Shown: positions 5,499-22,235 of the stretch, one piece after another
Layout of the letters: the number at the start of each line of letters is the position of its first letter
How positions within the stretch are numbered: position 1 is the first letter of the stretch
Assembly (NCBI GenBank): GCA_021163925.1
Contig: JAGGTD010000006.1
Span: 1-24,000, forward strand
Length of the DNA: 24,000 bases
Source of the DNA: Nitrososphaerota archaeon
GTDB lineage: Archaea > Thermoproteota > Nitrososphaeria_A > Caldarchaeales > Wolframiiraptoraceae
Direction: 5' to 3'
The notes under the pieces: generated by a model
Database searches by the model: none
What the model was told of the DNA's origin: nothing
What the model saw: only the letters and a program-made list of their open reading frames with translations
Position numbers and translations under genes: made by a program

Positions 5499-5557
5499 CT
5501 TATATATGTCTCAATAGACCTTTATAGATCTTGTCAAACAAGACTTATATATATCCG
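5499..5557 (+). promoter_or_regulatory. Promoter region of the ABC-importer operon: duplicated TATA-like 9-mer flanking a small palindrome
   Basis: CTTATATAT occurs at 5499-5507 and again at 5544-5552. CTTGTcaaACAAG (5530-5542) lies between the two copies. The second box is ~24 nt upstream of the ATG at 5573 (leaderless-type spacing). Confidence 0.5.
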
Positions 5558-7168: not shown

Positions 7169-7203
7169 GGCTTATATTTCCCTCTTTTTATTTAAAAGAT
7201 AGT

Positions 7204-8211: not shown

Positions 8212-8215
8212 AGCC

Positions 8216-9112
8216 ATGATAACGGCTGAAGGTTATAGGAAACTCATTTGGAAGGCGAAGATCAAGTGGCTCATCGGAAACATCATAGTCTACTCGATCG
8301 TCTGCATCCCACTGGTGCCTATAATCCTGATGTACGGGTGGCTAATAGCTCAAGCCTTCAGCGGAGTATGCATCTCAAGCCTAATCCCACAGAAGTTAAC
8401 TCTAAAGAACTTCTATTTCCTAACGGGTCCAATCTATTGGGGTGGAACGCCGCTCTATAAGAGCTATTGGCCGCTGGTCCGAAATACCTTGCTCCTCGCA
8501 TTGGGAACGACGGGGCTGGTGGTTGCGATAACCTCACTCGCAGGTTACGCGATATCGAGGTTCGAATTTAAGGGTAGAGACCCACTATTGAAGAGCGTTG
8601 TTGTCGTGCACTCGATTCCGGGAGTCCTATTCCTAATAGCCTTGATGTATATATTAAACACCATAGGACTCTATGGCAAAGGATTCTTAACCCTATTGAG
8701 CGTGATAATAATCAAGGCTGGATTAGAATCCCCGATGTATACTTGGATGCTTAAGGGTTTCTTCGACTCAGTCCCATGGGAGCTTGAGTGGGCGGCTTTA
8801 GTGGACGGGTGTAGCAGGTTCACCGCGTGGAGAAAAGTTGTGATGCCTCTCATCTTTCCAGGGATAGCCGCCGTGAGCATCTTCGCATTCCTATCAGGTT
8901 GGGGAGAGTATCTTCTAGTCCTAACTTACATCACCGATAGGAAGTGGTATACATTGTCGCTTGCCCTAAGTGAGCTGACCTATCAGTTCAAGCACGTCGA
9001 TTATGGAATGCTGGCCGCGTTCTCCCTCCTATACCTCCTGCCAGCGATGATATTCTTCCTGCTCACCCAGAAATACTTGATGACCATGAGGATAGTAGCG
9101 TACAAGGGATGA
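8216..9112 (+). CDS. ABC sugar-type transporter permease (MalG/UgpE-like)
   Basis: Polytopic 298-aa ORF with an EAA-loop motif EWAALVDGCSRFTAWRKVVMPLIFPG. GAGGTG motif 8 nt upstream. Starts 4 nt after the preceding stop. Confidence 0.88.
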   Translation: MITAEGYRKLIWKAKIKWLIGNIIVYSIVCIPLVPIILMYGWLIAQAFSGVCISSLIPQKLTLKNFYFLTGPIYWGGTPLYKSYWPLVRNTLLLALGTTGLVVAITSLAGYAISRFEFKGRDPLLKSVVVVHSIPGVLFLIALMYILNTIGLYGKGFLTLLSVIIIKAGLESPMYTWMLKGFFDSVPWELEWAALVDGCSRFTAWRKVVMPLIFPGIAAVSIFAFLSGWGEYLLVLTYITDRKWYTLSLALSELTYQFKHVDYGMLAAFSLLYLLPAMIFFLLTQKYLMTMRIVAYKG

Positions 9113-9202
9113 GCATTCAACTCATAAAAGAATCTTTCAAAAGATTTTATCCCAAAAAGCTTATATACACTATGGTGAAATGTTAATCTAAGGGGGTAAA
9201 TC

Positions 9203-10327
9203 TTGGTTAAGGTTAAGCTTGAACATCTAACGAAACGTTTCGGCAAAGTTGTGGCGGTTAACGACCTAAACCTTGAGATCAAGGATGGGGAGTTCATGGC
9301 CCTGCTAGGCCCATCTGGATGCGGTAAGACCACGACCATGCTGATGATAGCCGGAATCTATAAGCCCACAAAGGGGCACGTATACTTTAATGATGTGTGC
9401 GTTGACGATCTACCCCCAAAGGATAGGAATGTTGGAATGGTCTTCCAGAGCTATGCCCTCTACCCCCATATGAAAGTCTTCGACAACATAGCATTTCCCC
9501 TGAAATTGAAGAAGCTTCCAAAGGATGAGATTAGGGAGAAGGTTAAGAAGGTCGCAGACTTCCTAGAGATAGGTCATCTATTAGATAGAAAGCCAGCGCA
9601 ACTATCTGGAGGCCAGATGCAGAGGGTTGCCTTGGCTAGGGCCTTGGTCAAGGAGCCTGACATATTCTTGATGGATGAGCCTTTGAGCAACCTAGATGCT
9701 AAGCTAAGGGTTGTGATGAGGGCTGAGATTAAGAGGCTTCAGAAGAGGCTCGGGATCACGACCATCTACGTCACCCACGACCAAGTCGAGGCCATGACCA
9801 TGGCTGATAGAATCGCTGTATTGAGGGAGGGGGTTTTACAGCAATGCGCTGTGCCGGATGAACTCTACCTCAAACCCAGAAACATGTTTGTCGGAGGCTT
9901 CATCGGAAGCCCGCCCATGAACTTCCTAGACTGTTCACTGGTCGAGGAGAACCATGAACACTATCTAGATCTCGGCGTGTTCAAGCTATGGATACCACCG
10001 GATATAGCGGATTTAATCATGAAGAATGCCTCTGGATCTGAGCTCGTGCTCGGGATTAGACCTGAAGACTTGAAGGTCACCCTAACCCTACCTCCGGAGG
10101 CGAAGGAGGCTGGACAGAAGTCGAAGGTCCAGGCGATCAGATCCGAGATCTATGTTCTAGAGCCGCTTGGAAAGGACGTGATAATAAACACAAAGCTTGG
10201 GGACACACTTGTGAAGGTAGTCGCCCCTCCAACGATCAGGCCATCGGTGGGAGAGACTATATGGCTGAACTTCGACCTAGATAAGATGCATGTCTTCGAT
10301 AAGAAGACTGAGCTCGCGGTAGTCTAG
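9203..10327 (+). CDS. ABC transporter ATP-binding protein (MalK/UgpC-like, with C-terminal regulatory/TOBE-like domain)
   Basis: Walker A GPSGCGKTT, Q-loop MVFQSYALYP, signature LSGGQMQRVALARAL, Walker B IFLMDEPLSNLD, H-loop YVTHD. 374 aa. Confidence 0.93.
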   Translation: MVKVKLEHLTKRFGKVVAVNDLNLEIKDGEFMALLGPSGCGKTTTMLMIAGIYKPTKGHVYFNDVCVDDLPPKDRNVGMVFQSYALYPHMKVFDNIAFPLKLKKLPKDEIREKVKKVADFLEIGHLLDRKPAQLSGGQMQRVALARALVKEPDIFLMDEPLSNLDAKLRVVMRAEIKRLQKRLGITTIYVTHDQVEAMTMADRIAVLREGVLQQCAVPDELYLKPRNMFVGGFIGSPPMNFLDCSLVEENHEHYLDLGVFKLWIPPDIADLIMKNASGSELVLGIRPEDLKVTLTLPPEAKEAGQKSKVQAIRSEIYVLEPLGKDVIINTKLGDTLVKVVAPPTIRPSVGETIWLNFDLDKMHVFDKKTELAVV

Positions 10328-10393: not shown

Positions 10394-11380
10394 ATGAGCG
10401 GGCAGATAAATTTCGGACTCATTGGGGCTGGGAGGATAGGTGCCTTCCATGCGAGAAACATAAAGCAATATACGGATGCCAAGATCTACGCCGTAGCCGA
10501 CGTGGTTAGGGAGGCGGCTGACAGGCTTGCGAGGGAGGTTGGAGCCGAGAAAACATACTACTCACCCGAGGATCTGATCAAGGATGAGCGCGTCGATGCG
10601 ATCGTCATCTGCCTCCCAAATAATCTACATTATCAGGTCTCGATGATGGCCATCGAAGCCGGGAAGCATGTCTTCTGCGAGAAGCCGCTATGCCTCAAGT
10701 CGAGTGAGGCGGAGGACTTGGTGAGGAGGGTTAGGAAGGCTGGAGTGAAGTTTCAGGTCGGATACAATAGAAGATTCGATAAATCCTATGAGAATGTGAA
10801 GAAGCTCATCGAAGATGGGGATCTGGGAAGACTTGTGCTGGCATACTCCAATACATTCGACCCAGAGCCTCATAGTGGCTGGGAGGCGAATGAGAAGCTC
10901 AGCGGAGGCATCTTATTTACAACATGTAGCCACGACTTCGACATGCTCTACTGGCTGATAGGATCTAGGGTGAGGAGAGTTTACACAGAGTCTAGGGGCG
11001 CGTTTGGGAGAGATCAATATCTTATGAGTCTCCTATCTTTCGAGAATGATGTTCTAGGAGTCGTGAGCGTCTTCGAAGCATGTCCATATGGCCATGACGT
11101 TAAGACGGAGATAATAGGGGATAAGGCCTCCATCAGGATAGAGATGCCCGCGGCAACTTACTTCAAGAAATTTGATAAGAATGGGGTCCACACGGACTAC
11201 CCATATTGGTTCCTAGATAGGTTCGGCCACTCATACATTAAGGAGATCCAGGATTTCGTGCGCTGCATTAAGGAGGATAAGGAGCCGAGGGTGACGGTCG
11301 AGGATGGAGCACATGTTGTGAAGATCTGCGAGGCCGCGAGGGAGTCTCTGCTGAAGAGGATGCCCATAGATATCGGATGA
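10394..11380 (+). CDS. iolG: Gfo/Idh/MocA-family NAD(P) oxidoreductase (IolG-like myo-inositol 2-dehydrogenase candidate)
   Basis: N-terminal Rossmann motif INFGLIGAGRIGAFHA, the EKPL motif (FCEKPLCL), and GYNRRFD. 328 aa. The specific assignment rests on context with IolM/IolN/IolO-like genes. Confidence 0.75.
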   Translation: MSGQINFGLIGAGRIGAFHARNIKQYTDAKIYAVADVVREAADRLAREVGAEKTYYSPEDLIKDERVDAIVICLPNNLHYQVSMMAIEAGKHVFCEKPLCLKSSEAEDLVRRVRKAGVKFQVGYNRRFDKSYENVKKLIEDGDLGRLVLAYSNTFDPEPHSGWEANEKLSGGILFTTCSHDFDMLYWLIGSRVRRVYTESRGAFGRDQYLMSLLSFENDVLGVVSVFEACPYGHDVKTEIIGDKASIRIEMPAATYFKKFDKNGVHTDYPYWFLDRFGHSYIKEIQDFVRCIKEDKEPRVTVEDGAHVVKICEAARESLLKRMPIDIG

Positions 11381-11491: not shown

Positions 11492-12703
11492 ATGATGCCT
11501 ATGGAGAAGGATATGCTTGCAGCGGTCTTACATGCAAAATGGGATCCGAGGCCGGAGTATAAGCCCACGCCGAGAGACATTGAAGGAAGATTAACCTACC
11601 TCGGATCGATGGTTTGGAGATATCCCGAGCTCAAGCTTGAGCGTAAGCCGATTCCGAGGATTAGGGATGATGAGGTCCTGATAAGGGTTAGGGCATGCGG
11701 GATCTGCGGATCCGACATACACATGTATGAGAAGGATGAGGATGGATACATCCTATATCCTGGATTGACGGCCTTCCCAGTGGTAATAGGCCACGAATTT
11801 TCCGGGGAGATAGTTGAGGTCGGGGACAAGGCATACGACGCCAAGGGTAAGAAGTTTGAGGTTGGAGAGCCCGTCTGCGCTGAGGAGATGATTTGGTGCG
11901 GATATTGTCGAGCATGTAGGGACGGCTATCCAAACCATTGCGTAAACCTCCAAGAACTCGGATTCACCATAGATGGAGCACATGCGGAATATGTTAAGGT
12001 GACTGCGAGACACTGCTGGTCGATAAGGGAGATAATCGATAGACTTGGGGAGGAGAAGGGGTTTGAGGCTGGAGCATTGGTCGAGCCCACATCGGTAGCC
12101 TATAACGCGATATTTGAGAGGGCTGGAGGATTTAGGCCGGGAGCCTATGTCGTCGTCTTTGGAGCAGGGCCGATAGGATTGGCTGCGACGGCGTTGGCTA
12201 AGGCGGCTGGGGCGGCGAAGGTGATAGTCTCAGAGATCTATGATAAGAGGCTTGAACTTGCTAAGCTCGTCGGCGCCGATGAGCTGATAAATCCGACAAG
12301 GCTTAACGAGCCTGTCGAGAACAAGATCTTGGAGCTCACGGACGGAGAGGGCGCGGACATGTATGTGGAGGCCGCCGGAGCCTTTAACAAGACTTGGCCA
12401 ACAATTGAGAGATGTATCTGGGAAGGCAGTAAGATTAACGCTAAGGTCGCGGCGATAGGTAGGGCTGCTGGACACGTTCCGATCTGGTTTGAGGTTCTTC
12501 AGGTTAGGAGGGCTCAGGTATTCGGATCTCAGGGGCATTCTGGGCATGGGATATTCCCATCAGTCATAAGGTTGATGGCGTCAGAGAGAATAGATATGAC
12601 GAGGATGATCACCGCCAGATTCCCGCTGGAGAAGGCGGTAGATGCGTTCAAGCTGATAAGTGAGCATAGGGACGAGCACGCGAAGATCCTTATAAAGCCA
12701 TAA
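11492..12703 (+). CDS. iolM: Zn-dependent medium-chain dehydrogenase, long form (IolM-like scyllo-inosose 3-dehydrogenase candidate)
   Basis: GICGSDIHMY and GHEFSGEIVEVG (catalytic Zn), CGYCRACRDGYPNHC (structural Zn), Rossmann motif VVFGAGPIGLAA. 403 aa with a ~60-aa N-terminal extension. The specific function is inferred from context. Confidence 0.7.
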   Translation: MMPMEKDMLAAVLHAKWDPRPEYKPTPRDIEGRLTYLGSMVWRYPELKLERKPIPRIRDDEVLIRVRACGICGSDIHMYEKDEDGYILYPGLTAFPVVIGHEFSGEIVEVGDKAYDAKGKKFEVGEPVCAEEMIWCGYCRACRDGYPNHCVNLQELGFTIDGAHAEYVKVTARHCWSIREIIDRLGEEKGFEAGALVEPTSVAYNAIFERAGGFRPGAYVVVFGAGPIGLAATALAKAAGAAKVIVSEIYDKRLELAKLVGADELINPTRLNEPVENKILELTDGEGADMYVEAAGAFNKTWPTIERCIWEGSKINAKVAAIGRAAGHVPIWFEVLQVRRAQVFGSQGHSGHGIFPSVIRLMASERIDMTRMITARFPLEKAVDAFKLISEHRDEHAKILIKP

Positions 12704-12788: not shown

Positions 12789-13925
12789 GTGATCTACTTG
12801 TCCGAGGTTAAGAGAGTTGTTGATAAGACCGGGAAAGCTTGGTTCGTCACCGAACATCCAGCGATCTTCTTCGAGGACAACACGGTTGGGAGATTGAAGA
12901 AGGAGATCTGGGAGGCATCCGATGAGGAGATAGATAGAATCTTGGAGGAGTATGGCATACCGTCACCGCCCGAACTCGGAAAGCCCGGAACCTATATCCA
13001 AACGACCCCGAGGCATAAGGTGATCGAGAATAGGAGGAAGAACGATATAGTGTTCATCCCCGTTGGAAGCACCGAGGTCCATGGGATGCACTCAGTCTCA
13101 GGCCACGACACACTTCAGGTCACTCAGATAATCGAGGCTGTGAGGAGATACACGGAGAGGAAGGGGAGGCCTGTAAACCTCGTCTGGCCGATAGTCTATG
13201 GAAGCCATCCATATCACCATATCGGAATCCCCGGAAACATAATCTTGCCCGAGACCGTTCTCAGGGAGACCCTGATAGCCGTGATGCTCGGATTATGGAA
13301 TGATGGATTCAGGAAGCAGATAATAATCAGCAACCACGGCCATCAATGGGTCTTAAAATCAGCCCTACATGAATTCATGTACCGCTACCAGCTACCGGGA
13401 ATCTATCAGATCCTCGACTGGCATAGAGCCGTGAGGGAATTCTTCATCCCAACCGGTAGGAAGGATAGTTTTGAGACGAACTTCATCCACGCCGCTGAAG
13501 CCGAGACCTCCCTAGGCCTACTACTATTCCCGAAGGAGATGATAGACATGAGCTACGCGAAGGATGCTTTCGGAAAATCGTATCTCCCAGAGGGACACTT
13601 CGACCTATCAGTCGAGCCGTATAGGAGGCCGCATAGATGGTCTGAGGGCGAGGGGCATATGGCGATAGAGCTTAAGGCGACTCCCATAGGTAATGTTGGG
13701 AGACCGACGCTCGCGAAGGCTGAGAAGGCTAAGAGACCTGTCGCCGCGATCCTAAGATACCTGACCTTACTGATAGATCAGATCCTAGAGGCGTTTCCGC
13801 CTGGAAAGGTTCCGCCGGTTGAGGAGGTAACCCTGAGAACTAGGGAGGAGATGGAGCCATATCTTAAAGAGCCTGGAAGTGAGGGCTGGAAATCCGTGTA
13901 CTCCCTGCCGATATACAGGATCTAA
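12789..13925 (+). CDS. iolN: Creatininase-superfamily metal hydrolase, long form (IolN-like 3-dehydro-scyllo-inosose hydrolase candidate)
   Basis: Family blocks VFIPVGSTEVHGMH, ISNHGHQW and HAAEAETS. 378 aa against ~260 aa for classical creatininase. The possible real start is TTG 12798, 5-6 nt after GAGGTGA. The stop overlaps the stop of the convergent gene by 4 nt. Confidence 0.65.
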   Translation: MIYLSEVKRVVDKTGKAWFVTEHPAIFFEDNTVGRLKKEIWEASDEEIDRILEEYGIPSPPELGKPGTYIQTTPRHKVIENRRKNDIVFIPVGSTEVHGMHSVSGHDTLQVTQIIEAVRRYTERKGRPVNLVWPIVYGSHPYHHIGIPGNIILPETVLRETLIAVMLGLWNDGFRKQIIISNHGHQWVLKSALHEFMYRYQLPGIYQILDWHRAVREFFIPTGRKDSFETNFIHAAEAETSLGLLLFPKEMIDMSYAKDAFGKSYLPEGHFDLSVEPYRRPHRWSEGEGHMAIELKATPIGNVGRPTLAKAEKAKRPVAAILRYLTLLIDQILEAFPPGKVPPVEEVTLRTREEMEPYLKEPGSEGWKSVYSLPIYRI

Positions 13926-14755
13926 ACCAACTTTTTTATTTGATTTATCGCCTGCCTCGCAGCGGAGAATTGGTCTGGGATTGGGAGTATCTCAAATGAT
14001 ATGGTTCCATCATATCCTATCTCCTTGAGCACGCCTACTATCTCCTTGAAATTTATATGGCCTGACCCAGGTGCCTGTCTATTGCTGTCAGAGAAGTGTA
14101 GATATGCGAGGTGGTGTCTAGCTTTTCTAATGGCCTCTGGGATGCTTCTCTCCTCGATATTCATGTGAAAGGTGTCGGCTAAGAGCTTCAATGCCCCAGA
14201 CCCTATCTCCCTAATCAGCTTAACCCCCTCATCCAGCCTATTCACTATATTCGACTCATATCTATTCAGGGGTTCAAGCAAGATGTGTATCCCAGCCCTC
14301 TCAGCCTCCCTCGAACATCTCTCAAGACAACTCCTCAAATTATTCCAGCCATCTCGATATGATCCCTCAAACCTTCCCTTAACCGATCCTATGATTACAT
14401 CTGCTTCAAGTTCTTCCGCGAGCCTAATGTATCGAATTATCCTGTCGACGGCCTTCTCCCTAATCTCTGGACTTGGAGACGTGAAGCTTAAGCCGAACTT
14501 CGTATAGGTTAAGCCAGTCCCAATCGCGGTAACCCTTAGCCCATGTTTAGAGACCTTCTCCTTAACCTCTTTAAGCGGCATACTATAGGGATCCTCGACG
14601 AAGAGCTCCACGCCATCATAGCCTAGTTCATAAATCCTTGAGATGTTCTCATCGAAATCTCCGCCAAGTCCTAGAGGCTGAACATCTGTCTCCGGAGAAG
14701 CGATAACGATTGAAAACGTGAAACTCATTACCTCAGCCTCGAAGAGTGCTCGCAA
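13922..14755 (-). CDS. iolO: Xylose-isomerase-like TIM-barrel protein (IolO-like 5-keto-L-gluconate epimerase candidate)
   Basis: Barrel metal-site blocks ILLEPLNRYES, LLADTFHMNIEE, LHFSDSNRQAPGSGHINF and ISFEILP. The C-terminal half closely resembles my recollection of T. maritima TM0416. The likely true start is ATG 14728 (MSFTFSIVIAS), ~30 nt from a TTTAAATTT box. Confidence 0.65.
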   Translation of the reverse strand: MRALFEAEVMSFTFSIVIASPETDVQPLGLGGDFDENISRIYELGYDGVELFVEDPYSMPLKEVKEKVSKHGLRVTAIGTGLTYTKFGLSFTSPSPEIREKAVDRIIRYIRLAEELEADVIIGSVKGRFEGSYRDGWNNLRSCLERCSREAERAGIHILLEPLNRYESNIVNRLDEGVKLIREIGSGALKLLADTFHMNIEERSIPEAIRKARHHLAYLHFSDSNRQAPGSGHINFKEIVGVLKEIGYDGTISFEILPIPDQFSAARQAINQIKKLV

Positions 14756-14811
14756 AATTTAAACATGAGGTTCAAATATACTTAAATACAGCTTGAATAG
14801 CCGATAGTCTG
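14756..14811. promoter_or_regulatory. Divergent promoter region (IolO-like gene leftward; TAL-like/UxaE operon rightward)
   Basis: A/T-rich 56-nt spacer AAATTTAAACATGAGGTTCAAATATACTTAAATACAG, with TATA-like boxes placed 25-35 nt from ATG 14728 (minus) and ATG 14812 (plus). Confidence 0.55.
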
Positions 14812-16941
14812 ATGGAGTTCAAGGAGATTATCTTCAAATCTAGGCCAGCTGAGCTCCCATCGCCTCCAAGAAGTTTAGATCACGCCGATCACGTGGTCTC
14901 GGTTGGATTGGCTGGCCACACGAAGCTTGCCGCCGATCATCTCCTAAATAGGGAGATGGTTGGAAACCTCGTCAATGCGATTAGAGATATCCTCCGGAGA
15001 TTCAACCTGATCTTCAGGGCGAGCGTCGGAACAGGTGAGAAAGCGGTTCTAAACCGCTCAAGAATCTATGAGACCGTGGCTCAGCTCGCATTAAACCTAA
15101 TCGGCGTTGAGAAGAAGTGGATAGGCTTCTCAGAGGATGAGGTGGAGACCTCGTTGACGAAGATCTTGAACGCTATTAGAGAGTGGGAGGAGGTCGAGAG
15201 AAATGAATTTGGAGATCACCCAATATCGAAGGCGACGGTTGAAAAGATCTTATCTGAGCTGAAGAAGGTGATGTCAGGATACTATAGACCACCGGGATCT
15301 ATGTGTTCTAAGATGGCTCAGGAGATCGAGGAAAAGATGAATTGGGATAACCCGGTGTCGAGCTTCATCAACGTCGCCAAGGAGGTGATTCAAAACAATA
15401 TCTACTATAGGATGAGCATGGATGGATACTGTAAGTTCGGAAACGATTACGCGCTAGGGCTTAGATGGGTTAGGCATCTAGGATATGTTCAGGTCTCAAC
15501 GAATCCGACTCTCGCCGCGGTGGCATATGATGACGATCCAACCCTCTGGGATGGATTCATGGATGAGAGCTTCTGCCAAGACCTTAAGACCGTTGTGATG
15601 AAGTATCCGGAGTGGATTAAAAACCCGGAGAAGTATGCGGATGAGCTCGCGATGAAGGCCACGGAGCTCTCAATCTTCCCCAACCTAGCGGTCTTTAGGC
15701 CTATCGCGATCGCATCGGACTTCTATCATGGCCTCGTCAGCCTCCAATTAAATCCATATGTCACGAAGAACGTTGAGAATAGCGTCAAGCAGGCCATGCA
15801 GATCTACATGGATGCCGAGGAGTTTCTGAAGAGATATGATGAATACCTGCTCTGGGGATATTCGAATCAGGTTTGGAGGGGTAGGCCGAACATAGTCTTC
15901 AAGGTTACCGGGGACAGCCCCGCGGCAATAGACATAACGTCCATCTTGGAGAGCATGGGGATCGGGACAAACAACACGGTTACGTTTACAGTTGCTCAAG
16001 AAACAACCCTGATCCTAGCGAAGATCGAGGGTAGGGCTAAAGCAGTCAAGCTCGGAATTCTCCCTACGATGTGCTATGAGACCACGATGGGCGGGAGATT
16101 AGATGATCACATAAGGGAGGTTCAGGCCGAAGCCTTGCTCAAGAGAGCCGTAGAGAGAGCTGGAGAGGGATGCATCAAAGAGCTTGCGGAGAAGCTAGGC
16201 GCATGGGATAAGATCAAGGATCTACCCACAGAGGAGAAGATCAGGGTTGTTTGTAGTAGGAGGTACTTGAGACCCATGAATAAGAGGCCATTTGCGGAAG
16301 TGTTGGCGAAGGCCGGCGTCGTTGAGGGCGGGGTAGATGAGGCTCAGAAATACCTAGATAGACTTGAACATGACGTAGGCCACGCCGGGATAGAGGTTAC
16401 CCACAGGGTCTACAAGATATTCTTCAGCCCGGAGAACAAGCCCAAGTGGATCAAGTACATTATGTCGAAGTATGGTTTGAGCGAGGATGAGGCGAGAGAG
16501 GTATTGGATAGAATAGATGTCCTACCCGCCTCGAAGAGGAAGCCCATAGACACGCTCCTAACCCTAGCCTGGATGAATATGACGAACACGGAGTTCCCAA
16601 ACCATCAGACAAACGTCTTAATGTTCAGTAGGAGGCCGGACTTCAGGATGGAGGATTATAGAGACTCCGTCTTAAAGGAGATAGATCAGTCGATAATCCA
16701 TAGATTGACCGAGGAGTATCAAGATATAAGGGAAGATTGTAGAGCTGCTCTTGAGCTGAATCCAGAGCTCATAGAGAGGTTGAGGGAGGCCGGAGTAGAA
16801 GTAAACTTTGGGACTAGGGGTCACCTGCCCAAGGATTGGCCTCAATTCGGATCCGTCGTTAAGACCATGGACGAGTTCACGAGATCCTACACGAGGTTCA
16901 GGGAGAGGGTAGTGGAGTTTGTCAAGAAGCTGTCAAGCTGA
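14812..16941 (+). CDS. Transaldolase/fructose-6-phosphate-aldolase (TAL/FSA) family protein of unusual size (709 aa) with unassigned N- and C-terminal regions
   Basis: Core residues ~205-440 carry VSTNP (229-232), VSLQLNP (Gln312 at the TalB Glu96 / FSA Gln59 position), FKVT (Lys364, Schiff-base Lys position), GIGTNNTVTFTVAQ (matching GINCNLTLLFSFAQ) and TMGGRLDD (matching SPFVGRILD). I do not recognise the flanking ~200 and ~270 aa. Confidence 0.7.
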   Translation: MEFKEIIFKSRPAELPSPPRSLDHADHVVSVGLAGHTKLAADHLLNREMVGNLVNAIRDILRRFNLIFRASVGTGEKAVLNRSRIYETVAQLALNLIGVEKKWIGFSEDEVETSLTKILNAIREWEEVERNEFGDHPISKATVEKILSELKKVMSGYYRPPGSMCSKMAQEIEEKMNWDNPVSSFINVAKEVIQNNIYYRMSMDGYCKFGNDYALGLRWVRHLGYVQVSTNPTLAAVAYDDDPTLWDGFMDESFCQDLKTVVMKYPEWIKNPEKYADELAMKATELSIFPNLAVFRPIAIASDFYHGLVSLQLNPYVTKNVENSVKQAMQIYMDAEEFLKRYDEYLLWGYSNQVWRGRPNIVFKVTGDSPAAIDITSILESMGIGTNNTVTFTVAQETTLILAKIEGRAKAVKLGILPTMCYETTMGGRLDDHIREVQAEALLKRAVERAGEGCIKELAEKLGAWDKIKDLPTEEKIRVVCSRRYLRPMNKRPFAEVLAKAGVVEGGVDEAQKYLDRLEHDVGHAGIEVTHRVYKIFFSPENKPKWIKYIMSKYGLSEDEAREVLDRIDVLPASKRKPIDTLLTLAWMNMTNTEFPNHQTNVLMFSRRPDFRMEDYRDSVLKEIDQSIIHRLTEEYQDIREDCRAALELNPELIERLREAGVEVNFGTRGHLPKDWPQFGSVVKTMDEFTRSYTRFRERVVEFVKKLSS

Positions 16942-18472
16942 TGAACTCGTCGAGAAACTTGAAGAACATTTGAGAAGCAGGGGCAGAGAGATAAAGGTAT
17001 ATCGGCGGTCAATCACCACCCAATCCGGCACAGTATCACTTCTAATTAGAGAAGGATTGGATAAGAAGTTCGTGATGATATATCGTGAGGAGAGCGACCT
17101 CGTCGAGAGCTTCAAGGCTGAAGAGGAGGGTGAGCTCGACGGATACAGGTATAGAATCTGCCCATGCAATCATGAAAACGCGCTAGCCCTGAGAAGATAC
17201 TTCCCATACACGAGGCCGAGCCGGCTAGCGAAGGGATCGACGATAGGGATGGGGGATAGGATAGGCGTCGCGACCCCCGGCCACATAAGAGCTGCAAGAG
17301 AGTTTAGGATCTTTCCGGCCCTAGCACAGCAATCGATCAGAGAGATGGGGAGGACGGGGAGATCTCCTGAAGAGGTCTTGGACGATGTTTCTTGGGCGGT
17401 CTTCCAAGAAGGCTACCGAGATGGATTCGCGGCCGACGCAGACCACCTAAAGACCCTAGAGGATATCGATAGAACCTTCAAAGCTGGATTCACGATGTAT
17501 ACGTTAGATCCATCCGACTATGTAGACGATCTAGCCGGCACCTATGATCTCAAAACCTTGAGGGAGAAGTTTGATGGGCTTCCATGGAAAGAGCTTGGAT
17601 GTGACCCAAGAAGTTGCCTGAATAGATATGTCGGTCCAAGATTCAGGCTGAGATCCTCTGAGGGGGAGGTCGATATAACCTTCTCCGAGGAGGTGTTGAT
17701 GAGATCCGCTGTCAAATACTCCAAGGCCATCGCCCACATCTTAAAGATGTATAATCGATTAGTCGAGCTATTCGATGGAAAACGCTTCGACCTAGAAATA
17801 TCGGTCGATGAAACCGCAAGCCCCACAACGCCTCAAGAACACTTCTTCATAGCATCGGAGCTTAAGAGGCTGGGAGTTAGATTTGATGGGCTGGCTCTAA
17901 GATTTGTCGGCGCATTTGAGAAGGCGGTTGATTACCGCGGAGATCTAAAGATGTTTGAGGAGACCTTTAAGACCCATGTAATTATCGCGAAGAGCCTCGG
18001 CCCATATAAGCTGAGCATACATTCTGGAAGCGACAAGTTCTCAATCTATCCAATCATCGGGAAGTGGGCTAAGGGGATGTTCCACCTAAAGACCGCAGGC
18101 ACATCATATCTCGAAGCGCTTAGAGTCGTTGCGAGACATGACCCAAGATTATTCAGGGAGATAATAGATTATTCGATGAAGTGCTTTGAAAGGGATAAGG
18201 CGACATATATGATCAGCACGAAGATCGAGTCGATTCCAGATCATAGAATGTGTCGTGATGAGGAACTGGAGGACGTATTTCTGAATAGGGATGAAGGAAG
18301 GCAGCTACTCCACGTAACCTATGGATCGATCCTAACGGCGAGGGATTCTAATGGGAGATGGATATTCAGGGATAAGATCAGGAAAATTCTGCTCGAGAAT
18401 GAGGAAGAATATTATCAGCTCCTCCAAAATCATTTCAGAAAACATTTAACGGCATTAGGTCTAAAAGGGTGA
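16919..18472 (+). CDS. uxaE: UxaE-family tagaturonate/fructuronate (ketohexuronate C4) epimerase
   Basis: Long colinear resemblance to remembered Thermotoga UxaE: CNHENALALRRYFP, GMGDRIGVATPGHIRA, FPALAQQSIRE..RTGRS, VLDDVSWAVFQEGYRDGFAADADHLK, FTMYTLDPSD, SIHSGSDKFSIYP, KTAGTSYLEAL, LLHVTYGS. The TTG start overlaps the upstream stop by 23 nt; an alternative TTG lies at 16970. Confidence 0.85.
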   Translation: MSRSCQADELVEKLEEHLRSRGREIKVYRRSITTQSGTVSLLIREGLDKKFVMIYREESDLVESFKAEEEGELDGYRYRICPCNHENALALRRYFPYTRPSRLAKGSTIGMGDRIGVATPGHIRAAREFRIFPALAQQSIREMGRTGRSPEEVLDDVSWAVFQEGYRDGFAADADHLKTLEDIDRTFKAGFTMYTLDPSDYVDDLAGTYDLKTLREKFDGLPWKELGCDPRSCLNRYVGPRFRLRSSEGEVDITFSEEVLMRSAVKYSKAIAHILKMYNRLVELFDGKRFDLEISVDETASPTTPQEHFFIASELKRLGVRFDGLALRFVGAFEKAVDYRGDLKMFEETFKTHVIIAKSLGPYKLSIHSGSDKFSIYPIIGKWAKGMFHLKTAGTSYLEALRVVARHDPRLFREIIDYSMKCFERDKATYMISTKIESIPDHRMCRDEELEDVFLNRDEGRQLLHVTYGSILTARDSNGRWIFRDKIRKILLENEEEYYQLLQNHFRKHLTALGLKG

Positions 18473-19593
18473 AGCCGTTTCGCAGAGAGCCTAATGAACT
18501 GACTAGTAAAGATCGGGAGACCAAAATCGTTGAATTTTCTTTTCGAGAGTTAAGGTTTAAATATGTAGAGGAGAGAAATATTGGCATGAAGCCAACCGTC
18601 TATGTAACGAGAAGAATTCCGGAAGTAGGGATCAAGCTCTTAGAAGAATACTGTGAAGTCAGGTATAGAGATGAGGTTCCGTCGCCTCCAAGAGATGAGT
18701 TGTTGAAGGCTGTGGAGGACGTTGACGCCATATTCTGCACCCTGAATGAGAGGATAGATAAAGAGCTCATCGATAGGGCGAAGAAGTTGAGGGTCGTTGG
18801 GACGATGAGCGTCGGATACGATCACATAGACTTGGAATATGCCACCTCAAAGGGGATCTACGTGGTTTACACTCCTGGAGTTCTGACGGAGACCGTGGCT
18901 GATCACGCTTGGGCTCTTCTGCTAGCGGCGGCCAGAAGGGTTGTGGAGGCGGATAATATGATAAGGAGTGGTGAGTGGACGATCCCATGGGCGCCGACCA
19001 TGATGTTGGGGCACGATGTCTATGGAAAAGTTCTGGGGATAATAGGTCTGGGGAGAATAGGCTATGCCGTTGCAAAGCGGGCGAAAGGTTTCAACATGCG
19101 AGTCCTATATTATGACGTTGTTAGGCGCGAGCAGGCCGAGAAAGAGCTTGGAGTCGAGTATGCATCGATAGAGAGAATTTTGAAGGAATCCGACTTCGTC
19201 TCGATACACGTTCCACTAACCCCGGAGACCAGGGGACTGATAGGCGAGAAGGAGCTTAGAATGATGAAGAAGACCGCGGTGCTGGTGAATACGGCTAGGG
19301 GGCCTGTGGTCGATCAGAAGGCTTTGGCAAAGGCTCTCGAGGAAGGATGGATCGCCGCCGCGGGATTGGATGTATTTGAGAAGGAGCCGATAGACCCCGA
19401 CGACCCGCTATTGAAGTTGAAGAACGTGGTCCTAACCCCGCATATAGCCAGCGCCTCACACGACACTAGAAATAAGATGGCCGAGCTAACCGCTGAGGGC
19501 ATAATTAAAGTCTTGAAAGGGGAAAGGCCGGACAACCTCTGCAATCCGGATGTGCTCAAGGTAAGACCGCTCGACCAAGTGAAGCTCATCTGA
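18469..19593 (+). CDS. gyaR: D-2-hydroxyacid dehydrogenase, GyaR-type glyoxylate/hydroxypyruvate reductase (probable true start 18586, 335 aa)
   Basis: From MKPTVYVTRRIPEVGIKLLE onward it is colinear with remembered Pyrococcus GyaR (GIIGLGRIGYAVAKRAKGFNMRVLYY, VNTARGPVVD, GLDVFEKEP, LTPHIASAS). A TTTAAATAT box at 18555-18563 lies ~25 nt before ATG 18586. The 39-codon GTG-initiated extension is probably not translated. Confidence 0.88.
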   Translation: MKPFRREPNELTSKDRETKIVEFSFRELRFKYVEERNIGMKPTVYVTRRIPEVGIKLLEEYCEVRYRDEVPSPPRDELLKAVEDVDAIFCTLNERIDKELIDRAKKLRVVGTMSVGYDHIDLEYATSKGIYVVYTPGVLTETVADHAWALLLAAARRVVEADNMIRSGEWTIPWAPTMMLGHDVYGKVLGIIGLGRIGYAVAKRAKGFNMRVLYYDVVRREQAEKELGVEYASIERILKESDFVSIHVPLTPETRGLIGEKELRMMKKTAVLVNTARGPVVDQKALAKALEEGWIAAAGLDVFEKEPIDPDDPLLKLKNVVLTPHIASASHDTRNKMAELTAEGIIKVLKGERPDNLCNPDVLKVRPLDQVKLI

Positions 19594-19622: not shown

Positions 19623-20069
19623 TCATTCTTTTATAATCTCCACTTCCACTTCTTCTCCATCCTTAACCTTCCTCAGATCCTCAAGTCCTTCGGTGATCCT
19701 CCCTAAAGGCTTTACGGGACTATAAGCCACGGGCTTATCTCCCTTGCTGACCGGGGTTGGTCCGAAGAAGAGGCATAACGCATTTCCAGGTGGCCAGTAG
19801 GCTACTTCTCCAACCTCCATCTCTCTCCTCTCGCCGCTAAGGTTGAGCTTTATTGGAAGCTCAAAATAGATCTCATCCCCCCATCTCTCCGCCTCAGATT
19901 TGAACGGCGACTTCTCCGATAATCTTTCAAGCTCGGGATCATCCTCAAGTCTTGATGCGGCCTCAACTCCACCGCTAAACTTGAATCTAACGATGTATGG
20001 CATAGTCTCTGCGCTAAGGAGGTTTTGACGGATTTTTAAATATTTCGTCCATCGTGCATGAAGCAGCAA
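19623..20069 (-). CDS. Cyclophilin-like-fold protein of unknown function (TM1367/PF04126-like); probable true start ATG 20003
   Basis: The family-typical block EVGEVAYWPPGNALCLFFGPTP follows EIYFELPIKL. An A/T box (AAATATTTAAAAA, minus sense, ~20033-20045) lies ~35 nt upstream of ATG 20003 (MPYIVRFKF). Confidence 0.6.
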   Translation of the reverse strand: MLLHARWTKYLKIRQNLLSAETMPYIVRFKFSGGVEAASRLEDDPELERLSEKSPFKSEAERWGDEIYFELPIKLNLSGERREMEVGEVAYWPPGNALCLFFGPTPVSKGDKPVAYSPVKPLGRITEGLEDLRKVKDGEEVEVEIIKE

Positions 20070-20157: not shown

Positions 20158-21075
20158 ATGGAGGATTTGAGTAGATATGTAGAGCTAGGTATAGTGCATT
20201 TCATGGCGTTCCCTGAAACCATTAGGGGAGAGAAGGGGATATTGGAATCAATCAGGAAGATATTGCTCGACGACGACTTCAAGGTGATAGAGGTTACTTG
20301 GATCAAGGATCCGAAGGTTAGGAAGGAGGCAGCTGAACTATTTGATCAGTCGGGCATCAAGGTCCTTTACGCCGCCCAGCCAAGAGTACTTCTACAAGGA
20401 CTAAATCCCAACGCCCTTAATGAGGAGGAGAGGAAAAGGGCTGTTGAAGATCTGAAGAAGGGAATCGATGAGGCCATCGAGATAGGGGCTAAAGGCTTCG
20501 CATTCCTCGCCGGAAAGGATCCGGGTCCCGAGAAAAGATCTGAGGCGAAGAAACAGCTGATCAAAACCATAAGTGAACTTTGTGATTATGCCCGCTCAAG
20601 GGAGAAGGATCTCATGGTGGAGCTGGAGATCTTCGACCGAGAGATCGATAAGAGAGCGCTTATAGGCCCCTCTAAGGAAGCGGCTGAGATCGCTAAGATT
20701 GTCAGAAAAGAGCACTCGAATTTCGGCCTACTCCATGACCTAAGCCATCTACCCCTACTCGGAGAGTCTCCTAAAGAAGCCTTGGAACCTATCAAAAAGT
20801 ATCTAACTCATATCCACATAGGTAGCTGCGTACTCGACCCATCTCATGAAGCTTATGGAGATAAGCATCCAAGGTTTCAGCTCAAAGGTAGTGAGGTGGA
20901 TGTCTACGACCTACGAGACTTCCTAAAGACTCTATTCGACATAGGCTACCTAGGCGGAGAGCCGAAGGTAGTGAGCTTCGAAGTCTCCCCTAGACCTGGA
21001 GAAGACCCGGAGCTGGTCATCGCGAGCTCAAAGAGGTTCCTGTGGAGAGCGTGGTCGATGCTCGAGATACCATAG
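20158..21075 (+). CDS. Second xylose-isomerase-like TIM-barrel protein (sugar-phosphate isomerase/epimerase superfamily), specificity unknown
   Basis: E-D-H-E type metal-site spacing: MVELEIFD, LLHDLSHLP, THIHIGSC, VSFEVSP. 305 aa. GAGGTG motif 8 nt upstream of the ATG. Confidence 0.65.
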   Translation: MEDLSRYVELGIVHFMAFPETIRGEKGILESIRKILLDDDFKVIEVTWIKDPKVRKEAAELFDQSGIKVLYAAQPRVLLQGLNPNALNEEERKRAVEDLKKGIDEAIEIGAKGFAFLAGKDPGPEKRSEAKKQLIKTISELCDYARSREKDLMVELEIFDREIDKRALIGPSKEAAEIAKIVRKEHSNFGLLHDLSHLPLLGESPKEALEPIKKYLTHIHIGSCVLDPSHEAYGDKHPRFQLKGSEVDVYDLRDFLKTLFDIGYLGGEPKVVSFEVSPRPGEDPELVIASSKRFLWRAWSMLEIP

Positions 21076-21230: not shown

Positions 21231-21324
21231 GCCGGCGTAGCTCAGTCTGGGAGAGCGGCGGGCTGTTAAAGATCATAGACTTGCAGAGACCCGTCGGTCG
21301 GAGGTTCAAATCCTCCCGCCGGCG
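21231..21324 (+). tRNA. tRNA-Asn (anticodon GTT) with a 20-nt canonical-position intron (21269-21288)
   Basis: GCCGGCG-TA-GCTC-AGTCTGGGA-GAGC-G-GCGGG-CTGTTA[AAGATCATAGACTTGCAGAG]A-CCCGT-CGGTC-GGAGG-TTCAAAT-CCTCC-CGCCGGC-G. Loop CTGT pairs with intron GCAG, leaving 3-nt bulges (TAA and AGA) that carry both splice sites, which is BHB-like. GTTTTATAATCC box ~25 nt upstream. No CCA. Confidence 0.9.
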
Positions 21325-21417: not shown

Positions 21418-22235
21418 GTGATTAGGGTTTCTGTGGATGAGTTGAGGAGTGTTAAGCCCCTTATCTGCTATAATATGATCTTCGACCCAAATGCGAATTT
21501 TAAGACGATCTTGTTGAAGGATCTGATCTATAATCCTGATAATGTTGAGAGGATTCTTCGGGTGATTAGGAGTTGCGGTGGGAGGCTCAGATTAATGCCT
21601 CCATCGAATCCCTTGGGCCAAGTGGTTGACATGGCCTTTATCCTTGAATGTCCTGATGGGGTTGAGGAGGTTATCGCCAGAAAGATTGAGGAGCTTGGAG
21701 TGTGTAGGGAGGTTGAGATAATAGAGTCTCTGGATCGGAGGATTGCGATAAGCCCATTCTTCCCGATAATCTCTAGTGGTAGAAGGACGATAATAATGCC
21801 CGAGATACTTTATGCGAATCTGTTTGAGGGCATGAGGACGAGATTTAAGCCAGCATTGACCCAGATATTCCTTTATCAGCTCGGAATTCAGGTGGGAGCG
21901 AGCCTCGCCGAACTCCTGAAAGACATCCTAGAAAGGTATAGGGATGATCCGATCAACGCCTTGAGAATATTATTCCATTTTGGGAGAGCCTTCGGCTACA
22001 ATGTTCTAGACAGGCTTGAGATATTGGATGATAAGATAGTTTTAGAGGTTTTGGATGGATGGGAGGCCAAAGCGCTTAAGAAGAGATACACGTCTCCACA
22101 ATGCCATCTAACCAGAGGGATCATCGAGGGATTCCTGAATGAGGCGGGGGGGGGAAGTGGAATGTTGAGGAGACAGAGTGCATGGCCATGGGCTTTGAGC
22201 GCTGTAAATTCGTGATCTGGAGGAAGACCAAATAA
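21418..22235 (+). pseudogene. V4R-domain (4-vinyl-reductase-type small-molecule-binding) protein gene interrupted by a frameshift in a G8-9 run
   Basis: Track ORF 21418..22215 ends ...SPQCHLTRGIIEGFLNEAGGGSGMLRRQSAWPWALSAVNS*. The frame starting right after the G-run (~22146-22154) reads KWNVEETECMAMGFERCKFVIWRKTK*, the expected V4R C-terminus (E-x-x-C-x7-C-x-F). The N-terminal ~100 aa are unassigned. Confidence 0.7.

Follow-up and report, generated by a model that had tools for sequence, protein, structure and literature searches.

A 709-residue archaeal protein of predicted transaldolase fold encoded beside UxaE: a candidate enzyme for the cleavage of D-fructuronate

The fructose-6-phosphate aldolase (FSA) of Escherichia coli is a ~220 amino acid protein of Pfam family PF00923, with Asp6, Asn28, Gln59, Lys85, Thr109 and Tyr131 as its reference residues. 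A different kind of aldolase, IolJ, serves the Bacillus inositol pathway: it is a metal-dependent class II enzyme of unrelated fold, and its substrate has already been phosphorylated by IolC. Thermotoga maritima reportedly proceeds via IolG, IolM, IolN and IolO to D-tagaturonate, on which UxaE acts, followed by UxuB, UxuA, KdgK and KdgA. Here we describe a locus in a Nitrososphaerota archaeon (assembly GCA_021163925.1, contig JAGGTD010000006.1, positions 1 to 24,000, the whole of this 24-kb stretch being referred to below as the window) that resembles T. maritima in its upstream half (IolM and IolN equivalogs, best matches for IolG-like and IolO-like proteins, and an unambiguous UxaE). Unlike in Thermotoga, however, the D-fructuronate-consuming genes are not found in the window, and their place in the operon is held by a gene for a transaldolase (TAL)-like protein and one for a dehydrogenase of hydroxypyruvate/glyoxylate reductase type. 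The TAL-like protein, of 709 amino acids, is encoded by the open reading frame (ORF) 14812–16941 on the forward strand (ATG to TGA), the first gene of a unit that continues with UxaE and the 2-hydroxyacid dehydrogenase. We put at about one half the probability that it is a class I, Schiff-base enzyme of TAL/FSA fold that acts directly after UxaE and cleaves D-fructuronate or 5-deoxy-D-fructuronate.

Several published systems bear on this proposal. Catalytic roles for Gln59, Thr109 and Tyr131 of FSA are described in PMC13259622. According to PMC7491151, the 6-deoxy-6-sulfofructose transaldolase (SF-TAL) moves the C3 unit of a fructose bearing a C6 sulfonate onto glyceraldehyde 3-phosphate, giving fructose 6-phosphate and 3-sulfolactaldehyde, and this C3 aldehyde is then handled by a neighbouring dehydrogenase; a transketolase variant of the sulfo-TAL pathway is reported in PMC11659671. 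IolO is stated to make D-tagaturonate from 5-keto-L-gluconate (PMC12632266, citing Rodionova 2013), and the T. maritima inositol pathway to end at D-tagaturonate (Rodionova 2013, cited in PMC3750489).

By sequence alone, membership of the TAL/FSA superfamily is marginal, and it is the predicted fold that is decisive. The sole match in a Pfam scan of the 709-residue protein is to TAL_FSA (PF00923; 29.8 bits against a gathering threshold of 27, E = 4.9e-7), spanning residues 224–403 and profile positions 19–151 only. Searched singly against the PDB with phmmer, the protein finds nothing better than E = 0.39; a profile search reaches 3r5e at E = 2e-5 (weak matches to I-CreI and to ABC proteins in the profile search, at E 0.02–0.8, were dismissed as chance). 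An AlphaFold2 (AF2) model built from 41 family members (pLDDT 94.8, pTM 0.93) has exactly eight strands in barrel order (residues 208–211, 225–230, 308–312, 361–366, 386–389, 421–425, 568–572 and 590–594), and all 50 of the 50 matches listed by Foldseek against the PDB are transaldolases or FSA (TM-target 0.60–0.73), the best being the C. glutamicum transaldolase 3r5e (E = 1.5e-8, TM-target 0.70). The protein as modelled has a complete transaldolase-type (beta/alpha)8 barrel, and on this basis it is a member of the TAL/FSA superfamily. Its architecture and its catalytic-residue state are both new, and a new class of substrate is predicted for it.

An earlier reading made from the nucleotide sequence alone (the sequence-only reading) had proposed a TAL/FSA core from a series of motifs, namely VSTNP (starting at residue 228), VSLQLNP (309), FKVT (363), GIGTNNTVTFTVAQ (383) and TMGGRLDD (425). 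The core is borne out by the Pfam profile, the modelled barrel and the Foldseek matches, and the ORF, the motifs and the codons of Gln312 and Lys364 all lie where they had been placed. That reading had also seen no PGI motif, and the Pfam scan likewise gave no PGI domain, so that the protein differs from TAL-PGI fusions. Its further statement that some 200 N-terminal and 270 C-terminal residues resemble nothing familiar held in one half: the N-terminal domain has no relative in the PDB, but the C-terminal part contains the last two strands of the barrel, beta7 and beta8. The true additions beyond the barrel, as modelled, are the N-terminal residues 1–205, an insertion at 427–566 and the C-terminal helices at 596–708.

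Residue equivalences within beta3–beta5 come from profile-to-PDB and hhalign alignments. In these, Ser310 and Gln312 (SLQLNP) correspond to Ser94 and Glu96 of TalB, Lys364 (FKV), which lies within the beta4 strand 361–366, to Lys132, and Asn387 and Thr389 (GTNNT) to Asn154 and Thr156; Lys364 also aligns with the lysine of the IKI motif of the C. glutamicum transaldolase. The remaining equivalences were assigned from strand order in the model and motif similarity: Asp212 (FGNDYA), at the end of strand 208–211, would correspond to TalB Asp17, Asn231 (in STNP, next to Thr230), at the end of strand 225–230, to Asn35, and, in the motif ETTMGGR, Thr424 to Ser176, Met426 to TalB Phe178 and FSA Tyr131, and Arg429 to Arg181, with Ser574-Lys575-Arg576 taking the place of the TalB anion site Ser226-Phe227-Arg228. 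Beyond beta5 the hhalign register, in which beta6 of the family (YETTMGGR) had slid onto beta7 of TalB (YETVVMGAS), was discarded because the model shows eight ordered strands and a separate beta7 with ASKR.

Among 191 non-identical full-length family members (689–800 aa, with identity down to ~42%), Asp212, Asn231, Gln312, Lys364, Asn387, Thr389, Thr424, Met426, Arg429, Ser574, Lys575 and Arg576 are 100% invariant, as are Thr593-Glu594-Phe595-Pro596. That the catalytic set is invariant throughout argues for an active enzyme rather than a relic. The family appears from the alignments and model to keep the Schiff-base lysine, the base for the C4 hydroxyl and the anion site. The sequence-only reading had placed Lys364 at the Schiff-base position, Gln312 at that of TalB Glu96 and a methionine at that of FSA Tyr131, and these assignments are confirmed. 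The transaldolase Glu and the FSA Tyr are both missing, and the predicted combination Gln/Thr/Met constitutes a third residue state, which therefore speaks neither for an aldolase nor for a transferase. The only variable positions close to the active site (Asn388Ile, Glu423Asp/Val/Ile and His598Gln) track taxonomy and not partner type, and no residue separating UxaE-linked from IolB-linked members was found among the active-site positions.

The protein shares with E. coli FSA the TAL-type barrel and, strand by strand, an Asp (beta1), an Asn (beta2), a Gln in place of Glu (beta3), the Schiff-base Lys (beta4), a Thr (beta5), an Arg (beta6) and a Ser-x-basic motif (beta7). It differs in having Met426 for the catalytic Tyr131, and so lacks the Gln plus Tyr pair, in its inositol/uronate context, in a sequence similarity that is barely detectable in Pfam, and in its size: FSA is a decamer of ~220 aa subunits, and here there are 709 residues, with a 205-residue N-terminal domain, a 140-residue insertion and long C-terminal helices. 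The closest structural likeness is to TalB and the C. glutamicum enzyme 3R5E (EC 2.2.1.2). Asp17, Asn35, Lys132, Asn154, Thr156, Ser176 (Thr here), Arg181, Ser226 and Arg228 of TalB all have equivalents in the family, and the residue at the Phe178 position is again hydrophobic. Unlike in TalB, however, Glu96 is replaced by Gln in every one of the 191 sequences, and the protein is further set apart from classical transaldolases by its size, its three additions, the lack of a pentose-phosphate context and a patchy phyletic distribution.

The helical insertion at 427–566 is absent from classical TALs and also from a bacterial sister family described below, which shows normal beta6–beta7 spacing in alignment. 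The N-terminal domain, modelled on its own with AF2, has a pLDDT of 91, and a Foldseek search of the PDB with this domain alone gave no fold match (best E 0.36, TM ≤0.33). It contains an invariant polar cluster made up of Ser21, Asp23, His24, His27, Asp42, His43, Glu48 and Arg62. This His/Asp-rich cluster (residues 21–62, within window positions 14812–15000) resembles a metal or acid/base site and is missing from the sister family.

The 709-residue protein is not a singleton but represents a family of ~690–800 aa proteins. At least 637 relatives were found in a collection of 5.8 billion proteins, those listed being 689–762 aa long and nearly all with at least 96% query coverage. A species scan (one genome per species, ~185,000 genomes) recovered relatives from at least 218 of these, the majority of them archaeal. 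An exhaustive phmmer search of 1.84 billion representatives gave 145 matches, 40 of them at E ≤1e-30. At 50% identity the long archaeal family is small, comprising ~17 full-length clusters. Members occur in Nitrososphaeria, Bathyarchaeia, Thermofilaceae, Desulfurococcales and Pyrodictiaceae, in a few bacterial metagenome-assembled genomes (MAGs) and in MAGs labelled as Hadarchaeota; databases call them 'transaldolase family protein' or 'hypothetical'.

Gene context was surveyed by clustering crude ORF calls from 86 loci and then by tblastn of the window proteins against 80 species-level loci, out to a distance of 10 kb. The survey yielded the following raw counts, uncorrected for background in the commoner GFO, zinc-dependent alcohol dehydrogenase and 2-hydroxyacid dehydrogenase families: an orthologous 2-hydroxyacid dehydrogenase (47–64% identity) in 19 of the 80 loci, being the next gene in 8; IolG-like proteins in 19; IolM-like in 15; UxaE in 13; a KduI/IolB-family gene in 12; IolN in 11; and a second PF01261 protein and a cyclophilin-like PF04126 protein in 10 each. 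Where the cyclophilin-like gene occurs, the genes for the PF01261 protein and the 2-hydroxyacid dehydrogenase usually accompany it. Where at least 8 kb was available on both sides (35 loci), one or more such genes lay within 10 kb in 26 and within 500 bp in 15.

Adjacency of the TAL-like gene to UxaE recurs in several archaeal lineages; in Thermofilum the two genes form an isolated pair amid unrelated genes. In many Bathyarchaeia the TAL-like gene lies between a gene for an alpha/beta hydrolase and a KduI/IolB gene that follows it, whose product clears the threshold of the NCBIfam IolB equivalog (229.5 against 205), and at two loci (L015 and L017) UxaE and IolB both adjoin it. A transketolase gene lies downstream in L001 and L002. 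The IlvD neighbour seen in L027–L032 was discounted as pathway context, being a true dihydroxy-acid dehydratase (847 bits). In one subgroup of Bathyarchaeia (L011, L013, L022 and L025), paralogous URO-D-like (PF01208) genes flank the TAL-like gene in place of inositol or uronate genes. In L072–L074 a gene for a bifunctional Fae/3-hexulose-6-phosphate synthase (Hps) is found two genes upstream, beside PF01261 and GFO-family genes, and is the only hint in the archaeal family of a link to pentose-phosphate or ribulose monophosphate (RuMP) metabolism.

Further clues come from the next relatives, bacterial proteins of 460–600 aa in which the TAL_FSA domain scores 57–108 bits. Like the archaeal proteins, those of this sister family carry Gln (within SLQVNP) and Met (within MNGR) as a signature; their beta7 (ASLR) is normal. 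A metagenome scan with its profile found 418 relatives, and in the best 80 loci UxaE is present in 41; of the 48 that have at least 2.5 kb of downstream sequence, 31 carry UxaE downstream on the same strand. One protein, P0240 (1084 aa), has a C-terminal UxaE domain attached to a TAL-like protein of Gln/Met type, and such TAL-UxaE fusions occur as one uninterrupted ORF in two independent assemblies (L086, 5253–8633, and L153, 4993–8781; 1084–1262 aa), both on bacterial-looking metagenome contigs and each with a PF01261 gene after it. Since adjacency repeats and is joined by a Rosetta-stone fusion, the TAL-UxaE linkage is taken to be old and recurrent.

The UxaE homologues beside sister genes are divergent (24–46% identity to the window UxaE), and transketolase recurs beside the TAL-UxaE pair in sister loci. 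Several of these (L105, L110 and L117, also L109, L112 and L160) are arranged alike, with genes for, in turn, a transketolase, an IolM-like Zn-dependent dehydrogenase, the TAL-like protein, UxaE and an IolO-like epimerase. This may represent an L-aldonate or galactitol route, and it parallels the pairing of sulfo-TK and sulfo-TAL. A distant homologue, P0151 (626 aa, 29% identity), has N- and C-terminal additions, but its Schiff-base Lys (IAFGFA), Asp (FSSEG) and Asn (SMDAR) are all replaced, and it may be a pseudoenzyme paralogue.

In the window itself, UxaE is close to solved enzymes (9lhw, E = 1e-130; 6il9, E = 2e-111) and its ORF overlaps the stop of the TAL-like gene by 23 nt. The overlap, already remarked on in the sequence-only reading, depends on a TTG start at 16919, and is credible because both solved UxaE proteins align from ORF residue 12 and because a Shine-Dalgarno-like site, GGGAGAGGG, lies upstream at 16901–16909. 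The functional tie to UxaE that this reading had put forward is strengthened by archaeal adjacency, by the arrangement of the sister loci and by the fused ORFs. As the gene for the D-fructuronate-forming epimerase lies next to the TAL-like gene, the two being joined into one in a single bacterial lineage, the TAL-like protein probably splits D-fructuronate and would thereby open a hitherto undescribed final stage of inositol and uronate catabolism.

The fold, the conserved catalytic set, the gene neighbourhoods and the fusion are what has been shown so far. From here on we infer what the substrate and products would be, what becomes of the C3 ketol, which group acts as acid/base and whether the enzyme is an aldolase or a transferase. 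The window holds an IolG-IolM-IolN-IolO set plus UxaE, with IolM and IolN above their cutoffs and the IolG-like and IolO-like proteins below. In the proposed pathway, myo-inositol, possibly released from glycerophosphoinositol by a glycerophosphodiester phosphodiesterase (GDPD), would be oxidised by the IolG-like enzyme and IolM; ring opening by IolN would give 5-keto-L-gluconate, which the IolO-like epimerase would convert to D-tagaturonate and UxaE in turn to D-fructuronate. By derivation from Fischer projections, D-fructuronate has the 3S,4R (D-threo) configuration needed by TAL/FSA enzymes, and D-tagaturonate and 5-keto-L-gluconate do not; for D-fructuronate and D-tagaturonate this agrees with the sequence-only reading. 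D-fructuronate would then form an imine at Lys364, with its C6 carboxylate bound in place of a phosphate by an anion site made up of Arg429, Ser574, Lys575 and Arg576, and the C3–C4 bond would be cleaved with the help of Asp212. The products would be (2R)-tartronate semialdehyde and a lysine-bound enamine of dihydroxyacetone, which might either be hydrolysed to free dihydroxyacetone, as in an aldolase, or be handed on to an aldehyde, for instance glyceraldehyde 3-phosphate with formation of fructose 6-phosphate, as in the sulfofructose transaldolase pathway. Given the precedent of the latter, the transferase version is at least as likely as the aldolase version.

The C3 acid-aldehyde might be turned into D-glycerate by the co-transcribed dehydrogenase, directly or after isomerisation to hydroxypyruvate, and the hydroxypyruvate/glyoxylate reductase, as the most frequent partner of the family, could dispose of this product. 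The isomerisation could be spontaneous or, more speculatively, be due to the PF01261 protein encoded downstream in the window, acting as a tartronate-semialdehyde/hydroxypyruvate isomerase. In the Bathyarchaeia with IolB, 5-deoxy-D-fructuronate would be cleaved to a C3 ketol unit and malonate semialdehyde, bypassing IolC and IolJ. The IolB product, 2-deoxy-5-keto-D-gluconate, is in fact the same compound as 5-deoxy-D-fructuronate and, again by Fischer projection, has the same 3S,4R configuration and C6 carboxylate as D-fructuronate. As UxaE and IolB are unrelated enzymes with like products, both would converge on one substrate class. The reaction proposed for the IolB-linked Bathyarchaeia resembles that of IolJ in being a C3–C4 cleavage of an IolB-derived 3S,4R ketose-acid into a C3 ketol and malonate semialdehyde, but unlike IolJ the TAL-like enzyme would use a lysine imine on an unphosphorylated acid.

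In its proposed mode of action the closest analogue of the TAL-like enzyme would be the sulfofructose transaldolase BmSF-TAL (PDB 8BC4). Both would act on a fructose analogue with a non-phosphate anion at C6, downstream of an isomerase or epimerase, and both would pass a C3 aldehyde-acid to a neighbouring dehydrogenase; the transketolase variant of the sulfo-TAL pathway finds a parallel in the transketolase genes beside TAL-UxaE in L001 and in sister loci. Unlike SF-TAL, the enzyme described here would recognise a carboxylate. No genes for a sulfoquinovosidase, sulfoquinovose (SQ) isomerase or sulfolactaldehyde (SLA) dehydrogenase or reductase are found among those of the window, and membership of the SF-TAL subfamily is not supported.

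Several observations weigh against cleavage of D-fructuronate or its 5-deoxy analogue by this protein. With Gln312 and Met426 in place, no general acid/base is recognised. SF-TAL is a small decameric TAL with Asp, Lys and Glu and a WAR motif for the sulfonate, whereas the 709-residue protein has Gln for this Glu and lacks WAR. None of the classical phosphate-binding residues (Arg on beta6 and Ser-x-Arg on beta7) has been lost, and the additional Lys575 is the one obvious change to the anion site, so that a sugar-phosphate substrate is still conceivable; moreover the mapping of beta6–beta8 and any active-site role of the extensions are themselves inferred from the model. Isomerisation of tartronate semialdehyde would be needed because the 2-hydroxyacid dehydrogenase family reduces 2-keto acids and not aldehydes, yet the PF01261 protein proposed as isomerase does not specifically resemble Hyi. 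As to context, 9 of the 35 well-flanked loci are devoid of inositol and uronate genes out to 10 kb, several loci are embedded in housekeeping genes, and the neighbour counts for the commoner families are the raw ones given above. Literature searches found no paper on the family.

How far do these points favour other explanations? The retained anion site is one reason to think of an ordinary sugar-phosphate transaldolase or fructose-6-phosphate aldolase, a long archaeal form serving the non-oxidative pentose-phosphate pathway or RuMP-type shuffling, with its adjacency to UxaE either coincidental or reflecting UxaE-like enzymes that act on tagatose 6-phosphate and fructose 6-phosphate. Arg429 and Ser574-x-Arg576 correspond to Arg181/Ser226/Arg228, through which TalB binds phosphate, and the transketolase genes of L001, L002 and the sister loci, the Fae/Hps gene of L072–L074, the purely housekeeping surroundings of some loci and the database label 'transaldolase family protein' would all fit. 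Against this, Glu96 has become Gln and Tyr131 is absent, which is neither of the known catalytic arrangements, there is no kinase within the window, the window UxaE is close to solved tagaturonate/fructuronate epimerases, and the fusion and the 31 of 48 adjacent pairs argue against coincidence. The patchy distribution of the family (218 of ~185,000 species genomes, ~17 clusters at 50% identity) likewise fits an accessory catabolic enzyme rather than a core one. We consider a sugar-phosphate enzyme of this kind decidedly unlikely.

Somewhat less unlikely, though still improbable, is a Schiff-base aldolase or transaldolase for some other non-phosphorylated D-threo ketose or keto-acid made by UxaE- or PF01261-type epimerases, with fructuronate being one substrate of several or even non-physiological. 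D-fructose (from D-tagatose or galactitol), 5-keto-D-gluconate (L-sorburonate) and a keto-aldonate from L-galactonate or L-gluconate routes are candidates. The divergence of the sister-linked UxaE homologues points this way, as does the combination, in sister loci, of a Zn-dependent dehydrogenase, a PF01261 epimerase, an MFS transporter and a GntR/FCD regulator; some archaeal loci, too, have IolM-like and 2-hydroxyacid dehydrogenase genes with no UxaE within 10 kb, and the likeness of active-site residues in UxaE-linked and IolB-linked members suggests a shared or broad specificity. Yet every upstream step encoded in the window leads to D-tagaturonate, UxaE overlaps the TAL-like gene, and the invariant basic anion site favours an acidic substrate over a neutral hexose. 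That the protein works in the synthetic direction, or assists UxaE as a regulator or otherwise without catalysis, for instance as an assembly scaffold acting through its helical additions with no catabolic flux, seems to us very improbable: such additions do make up ~450 of its 709 residues, the general acid/base is missing and the distant homologue P0151 has lost the lysine, but all the other catalytic and substrate-binding residues are invariant in the 191 sequences and the gene comes first in a catabolic operon.

Returning to the cleavage of fructuronate, a wider reading of the archaeal and bacterial data can be offered tentatively, as distinctly doubtful in its full extent. It holds that the ~720-aa, mainly archaeal family, the 460–600-aa bacterial sister family and the TAL-UxaE fusions form a hitherto unrecognised TAL clade of Gln/Met type, a widespread 'uronate-TAL' module working with UxaE-type 4-epimerases as the carboxylate counterpart of sulfo-TAL. 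The enzymes would transfer C1–C3 of D-fructuronate (or 5-deoxy-D-fructuronate) to glyceraldehyde 3-phosphate, giving fructose 6-phosphate and tartronate (or malonate) semialdehyde, so that neither UxuB/UxuA/KdgK/KdgA nor IolC/IolJ would be needed to finish the breakdown of inositol, L-aldonates and hexuronates, the acid/base perhaps coming from the N-terminal His/Asp cluster or from the carboxylate of the substrate.

Were D-fructuronate cleavage confirmed, it would be a new activity in the TAL/FSA superfamily, the cleavage of C3–C4 in a ketohexuronate or transfer of C3 from it, and would supply the missing last steps of a Thermotoga-type inositol pathway in archaea carrying the family, for which most of what is said of sugar-acid metabolism derives from annotation. 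The sulfo-TAL logic, in which a C6-anionic fructose analogue is split by a TAL, would then be in broader use, and anyone accepting the label 'transaldolase family protein' as it stands would mistakenly ascribe a pentose-phosphate transaldolase to these genomes. The lack of the known acid/base residues and a 205-residue domain with no solved relative make the protein a target for mechanistic and structural enzymology, and the family may yield thermostable biocatalysts for C–C bond formation with acidic aldehydes.

The features of the locus are collected in Table 1.

Table 1. Features of the TAL-like gene and its neighbours, in window coordinates
Feature	Position	Strand	Basis
Glycerophosphodiester phosphodiesterase (GDPD)	4642–5358	+	family scan
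ABC transporter (binding protein 5531–7168, permeases 7204–9112, ATPase 9203–10327)	5531–10327	+	family scan
IolG-like inositol 2-dehydrogenase (GFO/IDH/MocA family)	10394–11380	+	TIGR04380, 286 bits, below cutoff 355
IolM, scyllo-inosose 3-dehydrogenase	11492–12703	+	NCBIfam equivalog, 545.7 bits against cutoff 450
IolN, 3-dehydro-scyllo-inosose hydrolase	12789–13925	+	NCBIfam equivalog, 302 bits against cutoff 245
IolO-like 5-keto-L-gluconate epimerase (forms D-tagaturonate)	13922–14755	-	best match NF041099, 270.6 bits, below cutoff 300
Divergent intergenic spacer, 56 nt, AT-rich	14756–14811	between IolO-like (-) and TAL-like (+)	sequence reading
TAL-like protein: N-terminal all-helical domain, residues 1–205	14812–15426	+	AF2 model
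TAL-like protein: barrel strands beta1–beta6, residues 206–429	15427–16098	+	AF2 model and TAL alignment, codons checked
TAL-like protein: Gln312 codon CAA, position of TalB Glu96 / FSA Gln59	15745–15747	+	alignment
TAL-like protein: Lys364 codon AAG, predicted Schiff-base lysine	15901–15903	+	aligned to TalB Lys132, invariant
TAL-like protein: helical insertion of ~140 residues (427–566) between beta6 and beta7	16090–16509	+	model secondary structure
TAL-like protein: beta7 (568–572, LPASKR) and beta8 (590–594, TEFP)	16510–16596	+	AF2 model
TAL-like protein: C-terminal helical region, residues 596–709	16597–16938	+	AF2 model
UxaE, D-tagaturonate/D-fructuronate 4-epimerase	16919–18472	+	Pfam PF16257, 567 bits
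D-2-hydroxyacid dehydrogenase, Pyrococcus glyoxylate/hydroxypyruvate reductase type	18586–19593	+	NCBIfam PRK13243 equivalog 'glyoxylate reductase', 488 bits against cutoff 455
Cyclophilin-like protein (PF04126)	19623–20069	-	family scan
Xylose-isomerase-like TIM-barrel protein (PF01261), candidate sugar-acid epimerase/isomerase	20158–21075	+	family scan

The spacer between the IolO-like and TAL-like genes is probably an archaeal promoter region, with TATA-like tracts 20–40 nt 5' of the ATG. A scan for sigma-70 promoters and terminators gave background-level scores only and was discounted, being uninformative because the host is an archaeon. Pfam and NCBIfam scans of the 24 kb found no kinase, UxuA, UxuB, KdgK or KdgA among the window genes; the absence of the last four, asserted in the sequence-only reading, thus stands for the window, and its extension to the whole genome would go beyond these data. 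The nearest PDB entries to the dehydrogenase are 5aov, 2dbq and 6bii (E ~1e-116), with alignment from residue 40 of the longer ORF. As homology begins at Met40, the start is probably ATG 18586 and not GTG 18469; the ORF from GTG 18469 begins with a 39-codon stretch that is free of homology, and the 4 nt by which it seems to overlap the end of UxaE are probably spurious.

Upstream, the GDPD and ABC transporter genes would probably provide for uptake and release of inositol or glycerophosphoinositol. The GDPD gene lies directly 5' of the sugar ABC transporter and iol genes, with the same layout in L001 and L002, a placement which suggests that the locus feeds on glycerophosphoinositol and not on free inositol only.

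A few further features of the window lie apart from these genes. A 94-nt tRNA at 21231–21324 on the forward strand (Rfam 58.5 bits), called 'tRNA-Stop, anticodon tta' by ARAGORN, is most likely an intron-containing archaeal tRNA whose anticodon has been mis-assigned, and a 265-aa ORF at 21418–22215 on the same strand gave no match in Pfam and NCBIfam scans. At the window edge (65–670, reverse strand) lies an ORF of 201 aa whose product contains a LAGLIDADG-like domain (PF14528); it may encode a homing endonuclease, either free-standing or derived from an intein. Finally, a radical SAM/SPASM protein of subfamily TIGR04084 (416 bits) is encoded at 3467–4543 on the reverse strand and adjoins a gene for a CPBP-type intramembrane protease (2583–3257) and a tRNA-Ile; the radical SAM/SPASM protein and the protease may form a peptide-maturation pair, and are unrelated to the TAL-like gene.

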